Notes under the pieces: generated by a model | Told to the model about the DNA's origin: nothing | What the model saw: only the letters and a program-made list of their open reading frames with translations | Database searches by the model: none | Program-made: the position numbers and the translations under genes | Assembly: GCA_902530455.1 (NCBI GenBank) | Contig: CACAAD010000001.1 | Span: 11,386 to 75,385, forward strand | DNA: 64,000 nucleotides | Direction of reading: 5' to 3' | Source: an uncultured Pelagibacteraceae bacterium | Lineage (GTDB): Bacteria; Pseudomonadota; Alphaproteobacteria; Pelagibacterales; Pelagibacteraceae | Shown here: positions 2,221-25,705 of the stretch, piece after piece | How positions within the stretch are numbered: the stretch's first letter is position 1 | Layout: every line of letters begins with the position of its first letter

Positions 2221-3174
2221 ATGAATGAGCTGACAACTGCCATAAAAGCTTTACATGAGAAAACTTTAAATAATCTTAAAGCCTCGAAAGCACATAATAC
2301 TTTAAGGGCATATAGGTCTGATTTTAGAGATTTTACGGTTTTTTGCGTAAAACATGGTTTTAAATCAATGCCCTCTGATCCAAAAATCGTATCATTATAT
2401 TTAACTCACCTATCAAAAAAATCAAAATTTAGCACTTTAAGACGTAGGTTAGTATCAATAAGTGTTATTCATAAATTAAAAGGTCATTATTTAGATACTA
2501 AACATCCAGTAATTATAGAAAATTTAATGGGTATAAAAAGAGCAAAAGGGAGCAAACAAGTAGGTAAAAAACCTATATTAATCAGTCATTTAACGAAAAT
2601 AATTAATGTGATAAATGAACAAAATATTGAGGAAATTGTTAAATTAAGAAATAAGGCTTTAATATTAGTAGGCTTTGGAGGTGGTTTTAGGCGTACTGAG
2701 TTAATATCTACCGATTATGAAGATTTAGAATTCGTTAGTGAGGGCGTAAAAATAACTCTCAAAAGGTCTAAAACAGATCAATTTGGTGAAGGAATGATAA
2801 AAGGTCTACCTTACTTTAGCAAAGAAGATTATTGTCCAGTAACAAGTCTTAAAAATTGGCTTAAAATATCAAAAATTAAAACTGGGCCGATTTTTAGAAG
2901 ATTTGCAAAAGGATCTGCATTAACAGAATATAGATTAACAGATCAGTCAGTGGTTCTAATTATAAAAAACTGTTTAAAATTAGCTGGTATAGAAAATAAT
3001 AATTTTTCAGGACATAGTTTAAGATCTGGTTTTGCGACAGTAGCTGCAGAAGCTGGCGCCGATGAAAGAAGCATAATGGCAATGACAGGTCATAAAACTA
3101 CGCAAATGGTTCGAAGATATATAAAAGAGGCAAATTTGTTTAAAAATAATGCTCTTAATAAAGTTAAAATATGA
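2221..3174 (+). CDS. Cre-like tyrosine site-specific recombinase
   Basis: N-terminal SKAHNTLRAY SAM-like region; catalytic R (GFRRTEL), K (SKTDQ), HxxR (GHSLRSG), H (TGH), Y (VRRYI). Confidence 0.92.
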   Translation: MNELTTAIKALHEKTLNNLKASKAHNTLRAYRSDFRDFTVFCVKHGFKSMPSDPKIVSLYLTHLSKKSKFSTLRRRLVSISVIHKLKGHYLDTKHPVIIENLMGIKRAKGSKQVGKKPILISHLTKIINVINEQNIEEIVKLRNKALILVGFGGGFRRTELISTDYEDLEFVSEGVKITLKRSKTDQFGEGMIKGLPYFSKEDYCPVTSLKNWLKISKIKTGPIFRRFAKGSALTEYRLTDQSVVLIIKNCLKLAGIENNNFSGHSLRSGFATVAAEAGADERSIMAMTGHKTTQMVRRYIKEANLFKNNALNKVKI

Positions 3175-19129: not shown

Positions 19130-20029
19130 ATGTCTATAAAATTAGGTATAGCACCCATAGCTTGGAGTAATGATGATATGCCTGAATTGGGTGGTGATAC
19201 TACATTAGAACAATGCTTATCTGAAGCAAGTAAAGCTGGGTTTACCGGAATAGAGTCAGGTGGAAAGTTTCCTAAAAATTCAAAAGAATTAATACCAAAA
19301 CTAAAAAAAGAAAATCTACAGCTTTGTTCTGGTTGGTACGGTGCATCACTTTTAAAGAATACTCCAAAAGAAGAATTCAAATTAATGCGTGAACAAATGG
19401 ATTTATTTAAAGATTGCAAATCTCCATGCATGGTATTTGCAGAAGTAACAAATTCAGTTCAAAGCGATCCGAAGACACCGCTATCAAAGAAACCAAAACT
19501 TTCTGAAGAAGAATGGAAATTATTAATTTCTAGAATTAATGAAATTAGTAAAATGATGATAGATGAAAATATGCCTCTTGCTTATCATCACCACATGGGA
19601 ACAGTTATTGAAACTGAAGCAGAGACAAGAAGATTAATTGAAAGTACCAATGATAGCGTGAAATTATTAATTGATACTGGTCACATGTTATTTGCTGGAG
19701 GAAACTCTATTAAAATAACAGAGGATTTTATTGAGAGAATAATCCATATTCATTGCAAAGATATTCGTAAAAATATTTTAGATAAATCATTAAAAAATGA
19801 TAGCACCTTTCGACAAGCTTTTCTTGATGGGGCTTTTACTGTCCCGGGAGACGGATGTATTGATTATAAACCTTTCTTAACTCTCTTAAAAAGTAAAGAT
19901 TATAGTGGTTGGCTAGTAGTTGAAGCTGAACAAGATCCCGCAAAAGCAAATCCATTTAAATACGCCAAAATTGGTTATAACTATTTAAGCAAAACTGCTA
20001 AAGAATGTGGATTGAATATAATAAGTTAA
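19130..20029 (+). CDS. iolE: Myo-inosose-2 dehydratase
   Basis: IAPIAWSNDDMPELGG, YHHHMGT, DTGH, HCKD and VEAEQDP motifs. Confidence 0.95.
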   Translation: MSIKLGIAPIAWSNDDMPELGGDTTLEQCLSEASKAGFTGIESGGKFPKNSKELIPKLKKENLQLCSGWYGASLLKNTPKEEFKLMREQMDLFKDCKSPCMVFAEVTNSVQSDPKTPLSKKPKLSEEEWKLLISRINEISKMMIDENMPLAYHHHMGTVIETEAETRRLIESTNDSVKLLIDTGHMLFAGGNSIKITEDFIERIIHIHCKDIRKNILDKSLKNDSTFRQAFLDGAFTVPGDGCIDYKPFLTLLKSKDYSGWLVVEAEQDPAKANPFKYAKIGYNYLSKTAKECGLNIIS

Positions 20030-20535
20030 CGATAAGCTGACACAAGCTCGTTATTACCTGCAGCTACGCAAGGTGATTTAATACATGTTCCAATCACCCA
20101 CTCAGATCCAACTTCAGACTGAAAATTACTTTCTGAGACAAAGATAATACCTTTATCTGTCGACTGACCAGCCTTCCCTTCTGCTTGAATTCTAGGATCT
20201 TGTGATGTTTGTATTAAGGGTTTGTCAATATTGTAAGGATTATTAAGTTTTATATTATTTAAAATATGTTCAACAATTTTTGAAGAGATCCAAGCTGAAT
20301 TACAATTGTCACCCCATGAAGTAGTACCTTTTTCATTTGAACTACATTTATTAATTTGATTGTTAATAAACTCCACAACTAATTTATGGTTTGCTTTTAT
20401 ATCATTAGCCTTTTGTACAACTGCCGATCTTGTAGAAGCAGTCCAGATTAACATAATTACAACATAAGCTAGTGAACTTAAAACTAAAGCTTCAAGTGAA
20501 CCAAAATTTTTTAGTTTTTTTCTAAATTCGATCAT
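20026..20535 (-). CDS. Hypothetical pilin-like membrane-anchored protein
   Basis: Basic N-terminus, F-G-S-L-E followed by a hydrophobic helix, NNPY, Cys pairs. Confidence 0.5.
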   Translation of the reverse strand: MIEFRKKLKNFGSLEALVLSSLAYVVIMLIWTASTRSAVVQKANDIKANHKLVVEFINNQINKCSSNEKGTTSWGDNCNSAWISSKIVEHILNNIKLNNPYNIDKPLIQTSQDPRIQAEGKAGQSTDKGIIFVSESNFQSEVGSEWVIGTCIKSPCVAAGNNELVSAYR

Positions 20536-21488
20536 ATTTTAACTATCATCGATTTATCTATTTTATTTTCAAAAAAATCAATAATATTTTTTGTTGTCTC
20601 TATGCTCATTCTAGACAAACATTCATCAGTGTTTGTTGCTATGTGAGGACTTAATATAACTCGATCATTTTTTAATAATGGATTATCTTTTTGGATTGGT
20701 TCATTTTCAAAAACATCTAAACCAGCCCCAAATATTATATTTTCATTTAATGCTTTATGTAGATCCAATTCATTAATTATCCCCCCTCGAGCAGTATTTA
20801 TTATAATAGAATTTTTTTTCATTTTTTTTAAATTTTGGAAATTTATTAAATTTTTAGTTTTAGAATTTAATGGCATATGTACAGATAAAAAATCACATTC
20901 TCTTAGTGAGTCATCCAGTGAGTCAACTTTAGTACAATTATGTAAATTTATTGTATCCTTACTCACAAATGGATCATAGACTTTAATTATCATATTGAAG
21001 CCTGAACACATTTTTGCTAAAGACTTTCCTATTCTACCAAAACCGGCGATTAATATTGTTTTATTTAAAAGCTCTATTGTTTTGATTTTATTGGAATTTT
21101 TTTTGAAATTACCATCTCTTACCTCCTTATTATATAAGGATAAAGATTTACAAATAGTTAAGATCATCGAAATAACATGTTCTGCTACAGCAGATGCATT
21201 TGCTGTTGCTGTTATTAGAAGAGCAATGTTGTTTTTTTTAATATATCCCAGGTCGACATTATCATAACCAACTCCATGTCTTGAAATTACTTTTAGATTT
21301 TCACATTTGCTTAAAATATTTGAGTTTAGTTTACTTACTCTTAATGTGCAGGCATCAAAATTTGGTAATTTGTTAATTAGATTTTTTTCTGAGGTATCAT
21401 CGATAATTTCATGTTCATATCCAGGGGTATTTTTGAGCAAATCTAAACCATCACTGTGAATGTTTTCAATTATTGCTACTTTTTTCAT
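20532..21488 (-). CDS. D-isomer-specific 2-hydroxyacid dehydrogenase (SerA-like, no ACT domain)
   Basis: RHGVGYDNVD, GFGRIG, NTARGG, LDVFENEP and SPHIA motifs; real start ATG at 21488 (the ORF-track extension reads through a tRNA fragment). Confidence 0.88.
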   Translation of the reverse strand: MKKVAIIENIHSDGLDLLKNTPGYEHEIIDDTSEKNLINKLPNFDACTLRVSKLNSNILSKCENLKVISRHGVGYDNVDLGYIKKNNIALLITATANASAVAEHVISMILTICKSLSLYNKEVRDGNFKKNSNKIKTIELLNKTILIAGFGRIGKSLAKMCSGFNMIIKVYDPFVSKDTINLHNCTKVDSLDDSLRECDFLSVHMPLNSKTKNLINFQNLKKMKKNSIIINTARGGIINELDLHKALNENIIFGAGLDVFENEPIQKDNPLLKNDRVILSPHIATNTDECLSRMSIETTKNIIDFFENKIDKSMIVKI

Positions 21489-21492
21489 AATT

Positions 21493-21519
21493 TGGCGGTC
21501 CCAAGAGGAATCGAACCCC
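21493..21519 (-). repeat. Displaced 3' fragment of tRNA-Glu (att direct repeat)
   Basis: TGGCGGTCCCAAGaGGAATCGAACCCC matches 22928-22954 at 26/27 nt. Confidence 0.92.
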
Positions 21520-21599
21520 ATTTGGTAGATCTTGACCCTTGGTCTTTTCCACTTGTTAAACAACAATACTAAATCATTTCATTAATAACAATAAGAGTT

Positions 21600-21621
21600 T
21601 GATCACGAATTGATCATAATT
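21600..21621 (+). repeat. Two tandem 11-bp repeats (candidate integrase arm-type sites)
   Basis: TGATCACGAAT TGATCATAATT. Confidence 0.55.
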
Positions 21622-21682
21622 GAAATAATTTTAACAAAATTTAATCATTTTTATAACATTAATTTATTAGAAGCTTATCTAA

Positions 21683-22270
21683 ATGAGATTTTTTATTATT
21701 GCTTTACTTTTTATATTTACATTTAACAAAGCTTTAGCAGATGAAACCAACTTTACTTGCAAACCAATTTATGCCGCTGTTCAAACTGTCAATGGTACTT
21801 TTTATGAAGAATCATTAGAAAATATGGATGAAGAGGCAGCTTTATTATCTGTTGTACCAGAGTCAAAATTTTCTATAAGAAAAAATGGAATTTTTTACAA
21901 AAATAATGACAATAGAAAATACGAATTTTTAAAAACTTATAAAGAAATTATCTCAGATTATGAATTATCTCCAAAAATTATAAACACTGTTAGAGAGATT
22001 AATGATATTTCAAAGGAGTTAGATAAAAAACTTGGTGTAGAGAATTTTAAAGCTTTTTATCTGCCATATTCTAATTATTCCCAAGAAGGAGAGCTTTTAA
22101 GTTCGTCATTAAAGAGGATAAGTATAGACACCAAAAATTATTTCACCTCTGAAATTACAATACCAAACCAACCGATGGAAGGTGTAAACATGTACTATTT
22201 TCTTCGAGAGTGTGATGTAAAAGGTATAGAAGTTGACTTTGAACCAGTTTTTAATAAAGCCTTATCCTAA
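21683..22270 (+). CDS. Hypothetical exported protein (island cargo)
   Basis: Sec signal MRFFIIALLFIFTFNKALA; acidic mature region with one Cys near each end. Confidence 0.75.
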   Translation: MRFFIIALLFIFTFNKALADETNFTCKPIYAAVQTVNGTFYEESLENMDEEAALLSVVPESKFSIRKNGIFYKNNDNRKYEFLKTYKEIISDYELSPKIINTVREINDISKELDKKLGVENFKAFYLPYSNYSQEGELLSSSLKRISIDTKNYFTSEITIPNQPMEGVNMYYFLRECDVKGIEVDFEPVFNKALS

Positions 22271-22837
22271 TTATTTAAATCCCCTTATTAACCACAATAT
22301 TGTTTTTTTTGAAATTAACCATGTAGGAATAACAAAGAGTGGTAATAATAATAACCATACAAAAATTAAAATAAATTCAAATAACATAATTGATTTACTT
22401 ATATATCTTTCACAGTTTTCTTTTTTATTAAAAATAATAAATTTAAAAAAACTTCCACCAACATAAGTTCCGTTTACCGATGATCCAAAATATGTATCGT
22501 TTTTGTCTAATACTTTAATACCATCTTCAACAGCGGTAATGATTAAATATTTATTTGGTCCTATGTAGACTTTTTTATTAGAATAAATATTTGTGTAGGA
22601 AAGGTCTGGAAAAAGGCTAGAAGTTGCACAGCTCATTTTTTGTGATAATCTTTTTTTTAAATAATTAAATTGATTTATTTCTCCACTAAATAACAAAATC
22701 AGTACAGAAAAATAAAAAAGTCCTGTGCCTAAAATCCAAAAACGAAAGAGACCTCTATCTAATCGATTTATTTCAAAGAATAATGCTAGTTTTTTGATTT
22801 TCAAGTGAAAGCTTTTTTTCATAAATAAATCTAACAA
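22271..22837 (-). CDS. Hypothetical two-TM membrane protein (island cargo)
   Basis: N- and C-terminal hydrophobic helices flank a loop with two Cys; start may be the ATG at 22822. Confidence 0.65.
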   Translation of the reverse strand: MLDLFMKKSFHLKIKKLALFFEINRLDRGLFRFWILGTGLFYFSVLILLFSGEINQFNYLKKRLSQKMSCATSSLFPDLSYTNIYSNKKVYIGPNKYLIITAVEDGIKVLDKNDTYFGSSVNGTYVGGSFFKFIIFNKKENCERYISKSIMLFEFILIFVWLLLLPLFVIPTWLISKKTILWLIRGFK

Positions 22838-22842
22838 AAAAA

Positions 22843-22875
22843 AGATCTCAAAACGATCGCAATCTGATCACACTG
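22843..22875 (+). repeat. Three tandem 11-bp repeats (candidate integrase arm-type sites)
   Basis: AGATCTCAAAA CGATCGCAATC TGATCACACTG; GATC at 22844, 22855 and 22866. Confidence 0.55.
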
Positions 22876-22927
22876 AACGTAAATTTTAAAAAAAAAAGTG
22901 ATTATTAACTCTTATATTAGAAGCTTT

Positions 22928-23002
22928 TGGCGGTCCCAAGGGGAATCGAACCCCTCTTTCATGGATGAAAACCATGTGTCCTAACCGATAGACGATGGGA
23001 CC
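22928..23002 (-). tRNA. tRNA-Glu (TTC)
   Basis: GGTCCCATCGTCTATCGGTTAGGACACATGGTTTTCATCCATGAAAGAGGGGTTCGATTCCCCTTGGGACCGCCA; cloverleaf with encoded CCA. Confidence 0.96.
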
Positions 23003-24765
23003 TTATTTTTGTGAGTCTTATTAACAGAAATATCATCGATAATAAACTCTACATTTTTTTCACCCTTCCATTCATTCAAACTCAGTTTTCCTACGATGTT
23101 AAAGGTATTTTTCTTATTATTAAGCAAAAATTGGCCAAGATCGGTATCATAAGAATTAAAGGCGATAGTTGTGATTGTTGAACCATCTTTTGATAATAGA
23201 ATCGACTTAATATGATTTTTACCGATAATTAGTGATTTTAAAACTTTAACATTTTCTATAATAAATTTTGGCTCAGGATTTCCAGATCCAAAAGGTGATA
23301 ATTTTTCAACTCTACTATAAAAATCCAAATTAAGTGCTGAAGCAGAGATTAAACTATCCAAATAAATTTCATTTTTTCCTGAATTTTTGTCAATTTTTTT
23401 GTTAAACATTTTTATTATAAATTCTTTAAGTTCTTGAATTTTATTTTCCTCAATTGAAAATCCTCCTGCCATTTTATGTCCACCTCCTTTGATTAAAATT
23501 TTATTTTGTATTGCGGCCAAAATAACTGCTCCAATATCAAAACCTAAAACCGATCTAGCAGATCCCTTACCAATATCATCTTTTAAAGAAATTATTATAG
23601 TAGGTTTATTAAACTTTTCTTTAATACGTGAGGCAATAATACCAATTACTCCTTCGTGCCAGTTATTTCCATATAGGACTAATACTGGATCATTAATATC
23701 ATCATTAACTGTATTCAAAACTAAATTAAGAAGATCTCTTTCAAGGTTTTTTCTATCTAAATTAAATTGTTCTAGTTCAGTAGCTATTTGAAAACTTTCT
23801 TTTGGATTATTGTTAAGCAACAAATTCGCACCATGAGAACATTTACCAACTCTACCGCCAGCATTTATCCTGGGTCCAATTATATAACCTAAATGGTAAG
23901 TTGAAGCTTTTGTTTCAATTTTACACAAATCAATCAGTGTTTTTAATCCTAAATTTTTTTTAGAATTAATTACTTTAAGACCTTGTTTTACAATAGCCCT
24001 ATTCAACCCAATTAAAGGGACTACATCGCAAACGGTACCTAAGGAAACTAAGTCTAAAAATTCAAGTAAATTTGGTTCTTTAATTTTTTTTTCTAAAAAC
24101 CACCCTTGTTTTCTTAAAGCAGAATTTATTGAAATTAAAGTCATAAAACATACTCCAGCAGCACATAAATAATTCAGTTTTGAATCGTCATCAAATCTAT
24201 TGGGATTAATTATAGAATGTGCTTTGGGTAAATTTATTTCAGACTGATGGTGATCTAGCACAATAACATCGACTTTGTTTTTATTTGCAAAATCTATTGC
24301 ATCAAAAGACATGGTTCCGCAATCGACGGTAATTATAAGATCTACTTTTTTTTCAATTAAATTTTGAAAACTTTTAATTGATGGACCATATCCTTCTAAC
24401 CTCCTATCTGGAATATATATTTCAAAATCTTGATTTATTATTTTAAAATAATTTCCAATTATAGCCGTAGAACTTGCTCCATCTACATCATAATCACCAA
24501 ATATTCCAATCTTCTCATTTTTAGTAATTGCCTTCAATAACCTAAGTGTCGTTTTTTCCATATCTTTTAAATTGTTAGGGTTTGGTATGAGATTTTTTAT
24601 TGATGGTTTTAAAAAAGTTTCAATAGAGTCTTTTTTTATGTTTCTTATTGATAGAAGTTTTGCTGTAATTTCATCTAAAAAAAAATTTTCCTTTAAATAT
24701 TCAACATAAGATGAGTCGAATATTTTATATTTCCAATTTTTTCCTGATAGTGATAATTCACTCAT
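22981..24765 (-). CDS. recJ: Single-stranded-DNA-specific exonuclease RecJ
   Basis: GDYDVDG, VDCG, LDHH, GPRINAGGR and GGGHKMAGG motifs; likely start ATG at 24765. Confidence 0.95.
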   Translation of the reverse strand: MSELSLSGKNWKYKIFDSSYVEYLKENFFLDEITAKLLSIRNIKKDSIETFLKPSIKNLIPNPNNLKDMEKTTLRLLKAITKNEKIGIFGDYDVDGASSTAIIGNYFKIINQDFEIYIPDRRLEGYGPSIKSFQNLIEKKVDLIITVDCGTMSFDAIDFANKNKVDVIVLDHHQSEINLPKAHSIINPNRFDDDSKLNYLCAAGVCFMTLISINSALRKQGWFLEKKIKEPNLLEFLDLVSLGTVCDVVPLIGLNRAIVKQGLKVINSKKNLGLKTLIDLCKIETKASTYHLGYIIGPRINAGGRVGKCSHGANLLLNNNPKESFQIATELEQFNLDRKNLERDLLNLVLNTVNDDINDPVLVLYGNNWHEGVIGIIASRIKEKFNKPTIIISLKDDIGKGSARSVLGFDIGAVILAAIQNKILIKGGGHKMAGGFSIEENKIQELKEFIIKMFNKKIDKNSGKNEIYLDSLISASALNLDFYSRVEKLSPFGSGNPEPKFIIENVKVLKSLIIGKNHIKSILLSKDGSTITTIAFNSYDTDLGQFLLNNKKNTFNIVGKLSLNEWKGEKNVEFIIDDISVNKTHKNKVPSSIG

Positions 24766-25705
24766 ATTTTGAATAAAAATTTTTAACTTTTTTAAGGATT
24801 TTAAAATCTCTATGTAAGGCAAATGTAGATACTTCATATTTATCGCCCAAATCTTTAATTCCTTCTACAATATCACCTCTAGTAATAGCTGAAGCACAAA
24901 ATATAACGTCCCCTTTTATCATTTCATCTATATTATATTTTTTTTTCTCATCTCTAATGCCTAATTTTTTCGCTCTTTGAAGTTGTTTATCATCCAAAAC
25001 TAGTCTTGTTTGTATTTGACCACCCATACAAGATAGTGCAGCTGCCGCTAAAACTCCTTCAGGACCTCCACCAGTACCCAGATAAATATCAATGTTTGTG
25101 TTAGGATCAGCAACAGATATTGCGCCTAATACGTCGCCATCAGTTATAAATTTTATATTTATATTTAATTTTTCTAAGCTTTTAATAATTTTATCATGCC
25201 TAGGTCTCTTTAAGATGCAGGCTGTGATTTTATCGTAGTTTTTTTTTTTTGCTTCAGATAAAAGTTTAATATTTTTTTCTACGCTATTGTCTAAATCTAA
25301 TAGATCTTTAGGCAGATTTGGACCAACTGCTATCTTTTCCATATAAGTGTCCGGAGCTGAGAATAAATTTCCTTTTTCGCAGACTGCTAACATTGAAAAT
25401 GCATTAGGTAAATTATTAGCAACAAAATTAGTTCCTTCAAGAGGATCTAAAGCAATATCAAGTTCTAAGCCAATTTTTGTACCAACTTTTTCTCCGATAT
25501 AAAGCATTGGTGCTTCATCCATTTCACCTTCACCAATAACTACCTCGCCTTTCATATTTATTCTATTAAGTTCATTTCTCATCATGTCAACAGAGCCCTT
25601 ATCGGCTGCATTTTTATCTCCTTTACCTATAAATGGAAATGCACCTATCGCAGCTTTTTCGGTAGTTCTTATAAATTTATTTAAATAATTTTTATCTATG
25701 GACAT
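24758..25705 (-). CDS. glpX: Class II fructose-1,6-bisphosphatase
   Basis: VIGEGEMDEAPMLYIGE, DPLEGT and GGGPEGVLAAAAL motifs. Confidence 0.95.
   Translation of the reverse strand: MSIDKNYLNKFIRTTEKAAIGAFPFIGKGDKNAADKGSVDMMRNELNRINMKGEVVIGEGEMDEAPMLYIGEKVGTKIGLELDIALDPLEGTNFVANNLPNAFSMLAVCEKGNLFSAPDTYMEKIAVGPNLPKDLLDLDNSVEKNIKLLSEAKKKNYDKITACILKRPRHDKIIKSLEKLNINIKFITDGDVLGAISVADPNTNIDIYLGTGGGPEGVLAAAALSCMGGQIQTRLVLDDKQLQRAKKLGIRDEKKKYNIDEMIKGDVIFCASAITRGDIVEGIKDLGDKYEVSTFALHRDFKILKKVKNFYSKYE

Follow-up and report, generated by a model that had tools for sequence, protein, structure and literature searches.

In the window, that is, the whole 64,000-nucleotide stretch analysed here from an uncultured Pelagibacteraceae bacterium, a small unit lies between a 2-hydroxyacid dehydrogenase gene and recJ, bounded by an intact tRNA-Glu(TTC) gene on one side and by a displaced copy of the tRNA 3′ end on the other (Table 1). 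The two copies (21491-21519 and 22926-22954) are identical at 28 of 29 positions and stand 1435 bp apart. An initial reading of this DNA from its letters alone, here referred to as the sequence-only reading, had reported this duplication over a shorter span, for which its figure of 26 of 27 is accurate, and had correctly placed the displaced CCA 4 nt from the ATG of the next core gene, that for the dehydrogenase. On the other side, the recJ frame extends into the tRNA-Glu gene at its 5′ side (22981-23002) and then stops. One Pelagibacteraceae record (L203) has dehydrogenase, tRNA-Glu, and recJ in the same order as the window. The unit contains two convergent open reading frames (ORFs) of 195 and 183 aa, neither of which has a family match in Pfam, PHROGs, or NCBIfam, in agreement with the earlier statement that no integrase is encoded inside. 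As judged by its ends, the unit would retain both attL and attR.

Table 1. Features of the tRNA-Glu locus (window coordinates)
Feature	Position	Strand	Remarks
Flanking 2-hydroxyacid dehydrogenase gene	20532-21488	-	ATG 4 nt after displaced CCA
Displaced tRNA-Glu 3′ fragment (T-arm to CCA), distal att core	21491-21519	-	One mismatch, at 21506
Left (distal) end	21520-21617		Conserved; nearly identical to left half of L186 attP
Left pair, likely arm-type sites TGATCAC, TGATCAT	21600-21617	+	107 and 118 nt from core start, as in satellite
Cargo gene 1, 195 aa	21683-22270	+	N terminus resembles a signal peptide (by eye)
Cargo ORF 2, 183 aa from ATG	22271-22822	-	Two hydrophobic stretches
Right trio, likely arm-type sites AGATCTC, CGATCGC, TGATCAC	22843-22871	+	Outermost degenerate
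Spacer, right repeats to tRNA	22872-22927		Common to G151.3; partly G008.2, G018.1
Intact tRNA-Glu(TTC), target	22928-23002	-	ARAGORN; no second tRNA-Glu gene in the 54%-complete assembly
Flanking recJ, longest ORF	22981-24837	-	True start probably further in

GATC words are present at 21601, 21612, 22844, 22855, and 22866 with a period of 11 bp, two on the left and three on the right, as had been described. Among 5000 shuffles of the element, 0.6% contained an 11-bp GATC pair and none contained a triple, and GATC-N7-GATC occurs at 7 sites (14 strand matches) in the 622-kb assembly, 3 of which lie inside the 1435-bp unit. The consensus given earlier, nGATCnCAA, has to be replaced by TGATCAC, a word that is perfect in only two of the five repeats of the window unit. 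The right-hand words lie 85, 74, and 63 nt before the core, a geometry that is also found in the units G008.2 and G018.1 and in others. The inverted 9-mer that had been pointed out near the two ends is indeed present (21591 and 22907) but is at chance level, occurring in 17% of 5000 two-end shuffles, and its right copy is found in only 2 of 10 GATC-type units; hence, it carries no weight. A search for an IHF-like consensus was uninformative, as at two mismatches it was present in 83 to 89% of shuffles. Promoter and terminator scans gave background numbers, with 13 found versus 9.8 ± 3.1 expected.

The tRNA-Glu site across the genus

We searched 178 genomes of the genus, 138 of which matched, and the tRNA region was fetched, mostly with ~10 kb on the array side. 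This yielded 128 loci with an intact tRNA-Glu gene from 127 genomes (G059 contributes two); six loci without a core (L042, L043, L046, L169, L170, and L172) and the genomes G060 and G085, which are without an intact tRNA, were omitted from the counts. The check for empty sites in related genomes proposed in the sequence-only reading had a positive outcome: at least 83 of the 128 loci are empty, 56 of them adjoining the dehydrogenase gene and 27 adjoining an aldehyde dehydrogenase gene, a lower bound since 18 single-core loci were left unclassed by the neighbour test. Core-bounded units, referred to below as cassettes, number 37 and occur in 27 of the 127 genomes, with lengths of 528 to 4173 bp and in tandem stacks of up to four. 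As anticipated, other cargo is found between the same ends among these units.

Two types of ends are present at tRNA-Glu, one with TGATCAC repeats, to which the window unit belongs, and one with GACAC repeats. The repeat types on the left and right are concordant in 34 of the 37 units and discordant in none, with 3 being untypable. In most units of both types, the right repeats lie at 63 to 64 and 74 to 75 nt from the core, some having an additional repeat at 85 to 86 nt, and in the unit survey the left repeats lie at either 107/118 or 84/95 nt. From the core out to the outer repeat, the sequences are well conserved, and directly past it conservation drops to about half, on both sides and in many unrelated cassettes. 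The expectation that the GATC repeats are conserved in related elements is thus borne out, and their distance is fixed relative to the core and not to the cargo starts. A scan of 401 genomes sampled from the order detected the GATC-type right-end pattern in 3, each of them a member of this genus.

Beyond the tRNA gene as seen from the array, L033 (G022) has a ~0.9-kb insertion at the recJ 3′ end (~2000-2950), with ~30 nt of recJ sequence directly repeated at its two ends.

A satellite-like element with matching ends

A metagenome scan with the left-arm pattern of the window unit returned 18 stretches (17 listed loci). Among these, L186, L187/L188, and L197 represent one 5.5-kb element (93 to 98% alike), with L186 and L197 assembled with 99-nt terminal overlaps and L187 with head-to-tail copies. 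The sequence-only reading had suggested a search for an integrase next to the tRNA-Glu core and the repeats, and this circular assembly combines the three: its junction consists, in order, of four TGATCAC repeats, the tRNA-Glu core, a window-like left end, two TGATCAC repeats, and the integrase start, which from the sequence is the putative attP arrangement of a circular element. The left end of the window unit is 95.2% identical to this junction over 125 nt (window 21492-21616; 107/113 ungapped). At the right end, the match is confined to the core, the spacer is unrelated, and the repeats lie 63, 74, and 85 nt from the core in the window unit versus 66, 77, 88, and 100 nt in the satellite. 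In view of this mismatch and of the 2- to 3-nt difference in geometry, the exact L186 integrase may not accept the window right end.

L186 codes for a 332-aa tyrosine integrase (PF00589) with a complete R-K-H-R-H-Y catalytic set, a primase/helicase (AAA_25 and PHROG matches), and a small terminase (PF03592). Pfam returned no arm-binding family for the integrase. In a model of the protein, the N terminus has three strands (2-7, 10-15, and 23-27) followed by a helix (30-45), which we take to be an arm-binding fold, and the model matches full-length lambda Int (1z1g) across 350 alignment columns; an N-terminal arm-binding domain is predicted on this basis. None of the seven L186 ORFs scanned had a capsid, AlpA, or Stl-type regulator match, four small ORFs being without any family, and no relaxase or conjugation family was detected among the scanned ORFs of L186 and G139.1. 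The latter is the GACAC-type counterpart at tRNA-Glu and has an integrase and a primase. In L183, the left end and the integrase are located beside a dehydrogenase gene, and hence the 5.5-kb element also integrates at this site. The rest of the metagenome loci have a window-type left end with other cargo, or the stretch ends close to it; one of them, L194, has cargo gene 1 with a different partner gene.

Integrases related to these target tRNA-Leu(GAG) and tmRNA genes. In 10 of 11 such loci inspected by eye, the integrase has its own 11-bp-spaced repeat pair directly before its start, and the repeat word differs at different targets. The co-variation of word and integrase is the strongest sequence-based argument for the repeats being arm-type sites, and, as for lambda-like arm-type sites, repeats lie on both sides of the core at a fixed distance in attP. 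Two GATC-type cassettes, G151.1 and G156.1, have a broken integrase start behind their left repeats, the remnant in G156 being 61% identical to the GATC-type integrase, which indicates that the cassettes descend from a satellite. The GATC repeats could also be thought of as host regulator or methylation sites for cargo promoters, with the tRNA fragment being only a scar. Such a role would be in keeping with the presence, on both sides, of repeats that precede a cargo gene and with a worn repeat pair that accompanies cargo gene 1 at a site without a tRNA core in G107 and G126. However, it is very improbable in light of the same pair preceding the integrase start in the satellite, of a word that changes with the integrase, and of a distance set by the core instead of by the cargo starts.

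We favor, with a probability of roughly 0.6, the reading that the window unit is an integrase-less cassette, likely derived from a satellite and likely still moved by a satellite-type integrase via its putative TGATCAC arm-type sites.

Additional small integrase-primase elements were observed at tmRNA and tRNA-Leu(GAG) genes in Pelagibacteraceae records (L204-L210, L218, L236, and L201), several of them 4.5 to 6 kb in length and some with a terminase-like ORF. In L205 and L208, one element is flanked by a tmRNA fragment and a tRNA-Leu gene. In a separate observation, ~93 nt of the satellite's right end (91% identical) is fused to non-satellite DNA beside tRNA-Glu in L116 (G061), with the distal end off the contig; G061 was rejected as an integrated satellite, as the match spans 93 nt only.

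Searches for an integrase, a carrier, and a circle

No intact GATC-type integrase was found in the 178 genus genomes, in which the matches were a GACAC-type element, an integrase of another site, and a remnant, or in the window's own assembly, which is 54% complete. The only PF00589 match in that assembly is a 317-aa tyrosine recombinase (window 2221-3174) located 18 kb from the unit, with a score of 34 bits versus the 265-bit integron-integrase cutoff and far below the XerC and XerD cutoffs. This protein was set aside as a helper, since neither satellite integrase matched it at E ≤ 1e-8 or 1e-10. A satellite-cassette tandem was not seen among the 37 units in 27 genomes, intact satellites being too rare in this sample. 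Similarly, a cassette circle joint, in which the right end would run on into the left end, was absent from the joints listed for contigs of 7 to 8 runs, a result that says nothing about absence, since contigs break at the 29-nt core, and two of the 8 runs may be one data set. A joint skipping 21493-22928 was not counted, as its short side has 27 letters.

In IMG/VR, the core pattern was present in 8 stretches, none of which had arm repeats and which, by their flanks, belong to other tRNA genes, mostly in tRNA clusters; the arm patterns had no match, nor did the G139 integrase, and an integrase alignment found only relatives with ≤33% identity. There was no DNA match in cultured phages, whose closest integrases are ~30% identical, and no packaging signal was identified. 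The sequence-only reading had named a phage or island integrase as a possible helper. An integrase-bearing element was indeed found, in the form of the 5.5-kb phage-satellite-like element, but no phage carrier, and the helper is likely to be such a satellite-like element and not a phage. It is improbable, to our minds, that movement is instead provided by the integrase of a temperate pelagiphage or of an unsampled tRNA-Glu satellite with a 63/74/85 right end, although the 64/75 geometry of cassette right ends of both types, which is absent from both sampled satellites, would fit this idea, and IMG/VR and the phage set may lack such small elements. No phage record has the core together with arms or either type of end, the closest cultured-phage integrases are distant (~30% identity), the left end of the window unit is nearly the satellite's own, and G061 shows that the right end of the sampled satellite also lands on cargo.

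Movement between hosts and a proposed mechanism

From core to core, whole cassettes are 97% identical in G000 (the window's genome) and G151, apart from one extra gene, 95% identical in G052/G080, 97% in G102/G166, 99.9% in G118/G188, and 94% in G003/G190, whereas the recJ flanks of the same pairs are only 78, 74, 79, 81, and 78% identical, respectively; the pairs come from kin genomes and are not independent tests, but the contrast between cassette and recJ is large. In all five pairs, identity falls at the distal core. The left neighbours are unrelated in G000/G151 and G052/G080 and 74 to 91% alike in the other three pairs. The window cassette has no other unit beside it in G000; in G151 it is the third unit, next to the tRNA, and has one gene more, a difference that sits between two similar A-rich start-codon stretches. 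Furthermore, near-identical DNA is present in marine metagenomes, with at least half of the cassette's sampled words found in 9 runs. As the same packet occurs in a distantly related genome, satellite-like elements likely ferry cassettes between species.

The tRNA-Glu gene was also noted as a mosaic breakpoint when L375 (G086) and L382 (G101) were compared with window positions 19600-25000. G086 is 97.8% identical to G000 on the left and 75% in recJ, and G101 is 96.9% identical in recJ and has a different gene on the left. Whole-flank swaps of this kind mean that homologous recombination acts at tRNA-Glu too, and it can explain part of the variation, above all the turnover of cargo between conserved ends, as in G008.2 and G018.1, which have the same ends and different cargo; it accounts less well for empty sites having been filled and for mixed-type units being absent. 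In its strongest form, this alternative holds that the satellite decayed in place and left an inert relic, whose ends, along with the tRNA, are anchors at which host recombination swaps cargo without any integrase action. The different cargo of G008.2 and G018.1, the flank swaps of G086 and G101, the rarity of integrases in the genus (2 to 3 of 178 genomes), and the partly degenerate repeats of the window unit are in line with such a relic, as is a preprint whose available text describes SAR11 variable loci as compatible with homologous replacement (10.64898/2026.10.07.757358). Nevertheless, we consider it unlikely, as no fewer than 83 of 128 loci, the majority, are empty and filling such a site needs a circle and one crossover in a 26-nt core. 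In addition, one and the same cassette can occupy different positions in an array and have unrelated neighbours, many unrelated cassettes lose conservation exactly at the repeats, and units with mixed left and right types are absent, though anchor swaps could make them.

With regard to the origin and movement of a satellite-derived cassette, the following scheme is proposed. The relatives with an integrase remnant show that such cassettes arose as satellite genes were lost and cargo was acquired. When a satellite enters a cassette-bearing cell, its integrase and a putative directionality factor would recombine the two cores, and a crossover in or next to the T-loop would free the cassette, either alone or joined to the satellite. 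In this regard, three distal core copies lose identity directly after the T-loop, and T-loop and junction classes of tRNA integration sites have been described in the literature (PMC4383910, as far as its available text goes). If precise excision occurred by a T-loop crossover, the 21506 mismatch would stay in the restored tRNA as a T-stem G-U pair. The circle could then reach another cell in a phage particle or a vesicle and integrate at tRNA-Glu; the tRNA would thereby be restored and older units displaced outward, which would give rise to arrays, while the cargo between the conserved ends would turn over by ordinary or microhomology recombination. The "complete attP" and the mobilisation in trans put forward in the sequence-only reading would form part of this scheme, but tandem cotransfer with the satellite fits equally well.

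Relation to known systems

Integron arrays consist of small, promoter-poor cargo units that are handled by a tyrosine recombinase, with the newest unit nearest the entry site. The arrays described here are likewise made up of small, promoter-poor cargo units that would be moved by a tyrosine recombinase, with the newest presumably nearest the entry site, but they are without a resident IntI and attC, and their joints are tRNA cores with ~100-nt double-stranded arm regions. Tentatively, it can be proposed that this SAR11 genus has a cassette system akin to an integron but with no integrase in residence, in which the tiny two-arm cassettes are a selected, self-standing class of satellite parasites, a single tRNA-Glu array receives units of at least two satellite specificities (TGATCAC and GACAC) from across species borders, and the GACAC right end is a fixed expression slot; we hold this broader proposal to be doubtful at present.

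In several respects, the window unit resembles the CIMEs that arise from ICESt1/ICESt3-type elements and undergo tandem accretion (PMC5704250): it has no integration or transfer genes, appears from its sequence to keep attL and attR, and belongs to units that stack at the 3′ end of a target gene. In contrast to CIMEs as portrayed in the available parts of that source, the parent-like elements (L186 and G139.1) are 4- to 5.5-kb integrase-primase(-terminase) elements in which conjugation genes were undetected and are not ICEs or IMEs, and the units are 0.5 to 3.5 kb in length, are trimmed to the arm repeats, are common to several species, and have no helper alongside. The window unit works like a CIME but, as an ICE or IME parent is not apparent, is not filed as one.

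L186 itself is similar to VEIMEs and PICIs in having a tyrosine integrase, a primase/helicase, and a small terminase, a size of <6 kb, a head-to-tail arrangement, and Pelagibacteraceae relatives (PMC9618062 and PMC11876622, in the portions at hand). The circular and head-to-tail assemblies of L186, as sequences, would fit helper-phage induction and packaging. The window unit differs in being without integrase, primase/helicase, and terminase, and about 20% of VEIMEs are stated to be without a recognised integrase in the available text of PMC9618062. The corresponding text of the two VEIME papers (PMC9618062 and PMC11876622) contains no description of att sites, arm repeats, or dependent cassettes, and the VEIME sequence datasets may contain L186-like elements.

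The additive flexible islands of SAR11 and "Ca. Actinomarinales" (PMC11796062 and PMC7771536) resemble the present locus in having small tRNA-site cassettes, a partial tRNA repeat, and almost no integrases nearby; in the accessible text of these papers, however, no recombinase or arm sites are named, while the present locus has a candidate integrase donor whose ends match. Tycheposons of Prochlorococcus are also tRNA-targeted integrative elements that carry cargo or are satellite-like and build islands, but according to the consulted portion of their description (10.1101/2020.12.28.424599), they usually encode an integrase, which the window unit does not. Similar to what is outlined for the KplE1-type attL (PMC2951348, in part), the helper's likely arm-type sites lie directly before its integrase start, and attL thus probably overlaps the integrase promoter; this is a feature of the helper and not of the cassette.

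Att-retaining decayed elements, tandem accretion at tRNA genes, and tRNA-fragment-marked cassettes in SAR11 and Actinomarinales are known already, as far as the text available from these sources goes. A literature search retrieved no paper linking such SAR11 cassettes to satellite att arms, as far as the text at hand goes; relevant material may be contained in the VEIME datasets and in Fig. S2 of PMC11796062. SAR11 bacteria have huge flexible gene pools and almost no mobile-element genes, and the available text of two sources leaves the underlying mechanism open (PMC11796062 and 10.64898/2026.10.07.757358). The locus described here offers a concrete and testable route for one hotspot, in which rare, transient satellites would supply the integrase to many integrase-less cassettes, and about a fifth of the sampled genomes (27/127) have such units at tRNA-Glu. 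The enzyme, the core, and the repeats are named for an in vitro test and might provide a small SAR11 integration vector.

Cargo genes

Cargo gene 1 has 129 homologues at an E value of ≤0.001, with a Pfam family in none among the 120 listed, and differs from its G151 counterpart by 11 synonymous and 7 nonsynonymous codon changes. Cargo ORF 2 is present in only 2 of the 178 genomes (G000 and G151), between which the frame stays open, with 3 synonymous and 10 nonsynonymous changes; by these counts, the evidence for ORF 2 as a selected gene appears weaker than that for gene 1. Copies of cargo gene 1 with 73 to 74% identity were found between two core-looking genes in G107 (L169, 10375-11079) and G126 (L170, 3165-3831), with a worn repeat pair upstream and no tRNA core, and are probably cassette cargo that became fixed at another site.

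Across units, the cargo is varied and consists mostly of small proteins with hydrophobic N termini. In the GACAC-type units (e.g., L031, L081, L129, and L159), a cargo ORF of at least 60 aa begins at an ATG that overlaps the outer right repeat in 16 of 26 cases, and the last stop codon is often within ~10 nt of the left repeats. From this layout, it is possible that the right end of GACAC-type cassettes acts as a fixed expression slot. The cassettes in L159, L164, and L081 (G076.1, G162.1, and G053.2) have two to three paralogous exported-protein genes with a common conserved C-terminal tail, by which the number of genes could expand and shrink.
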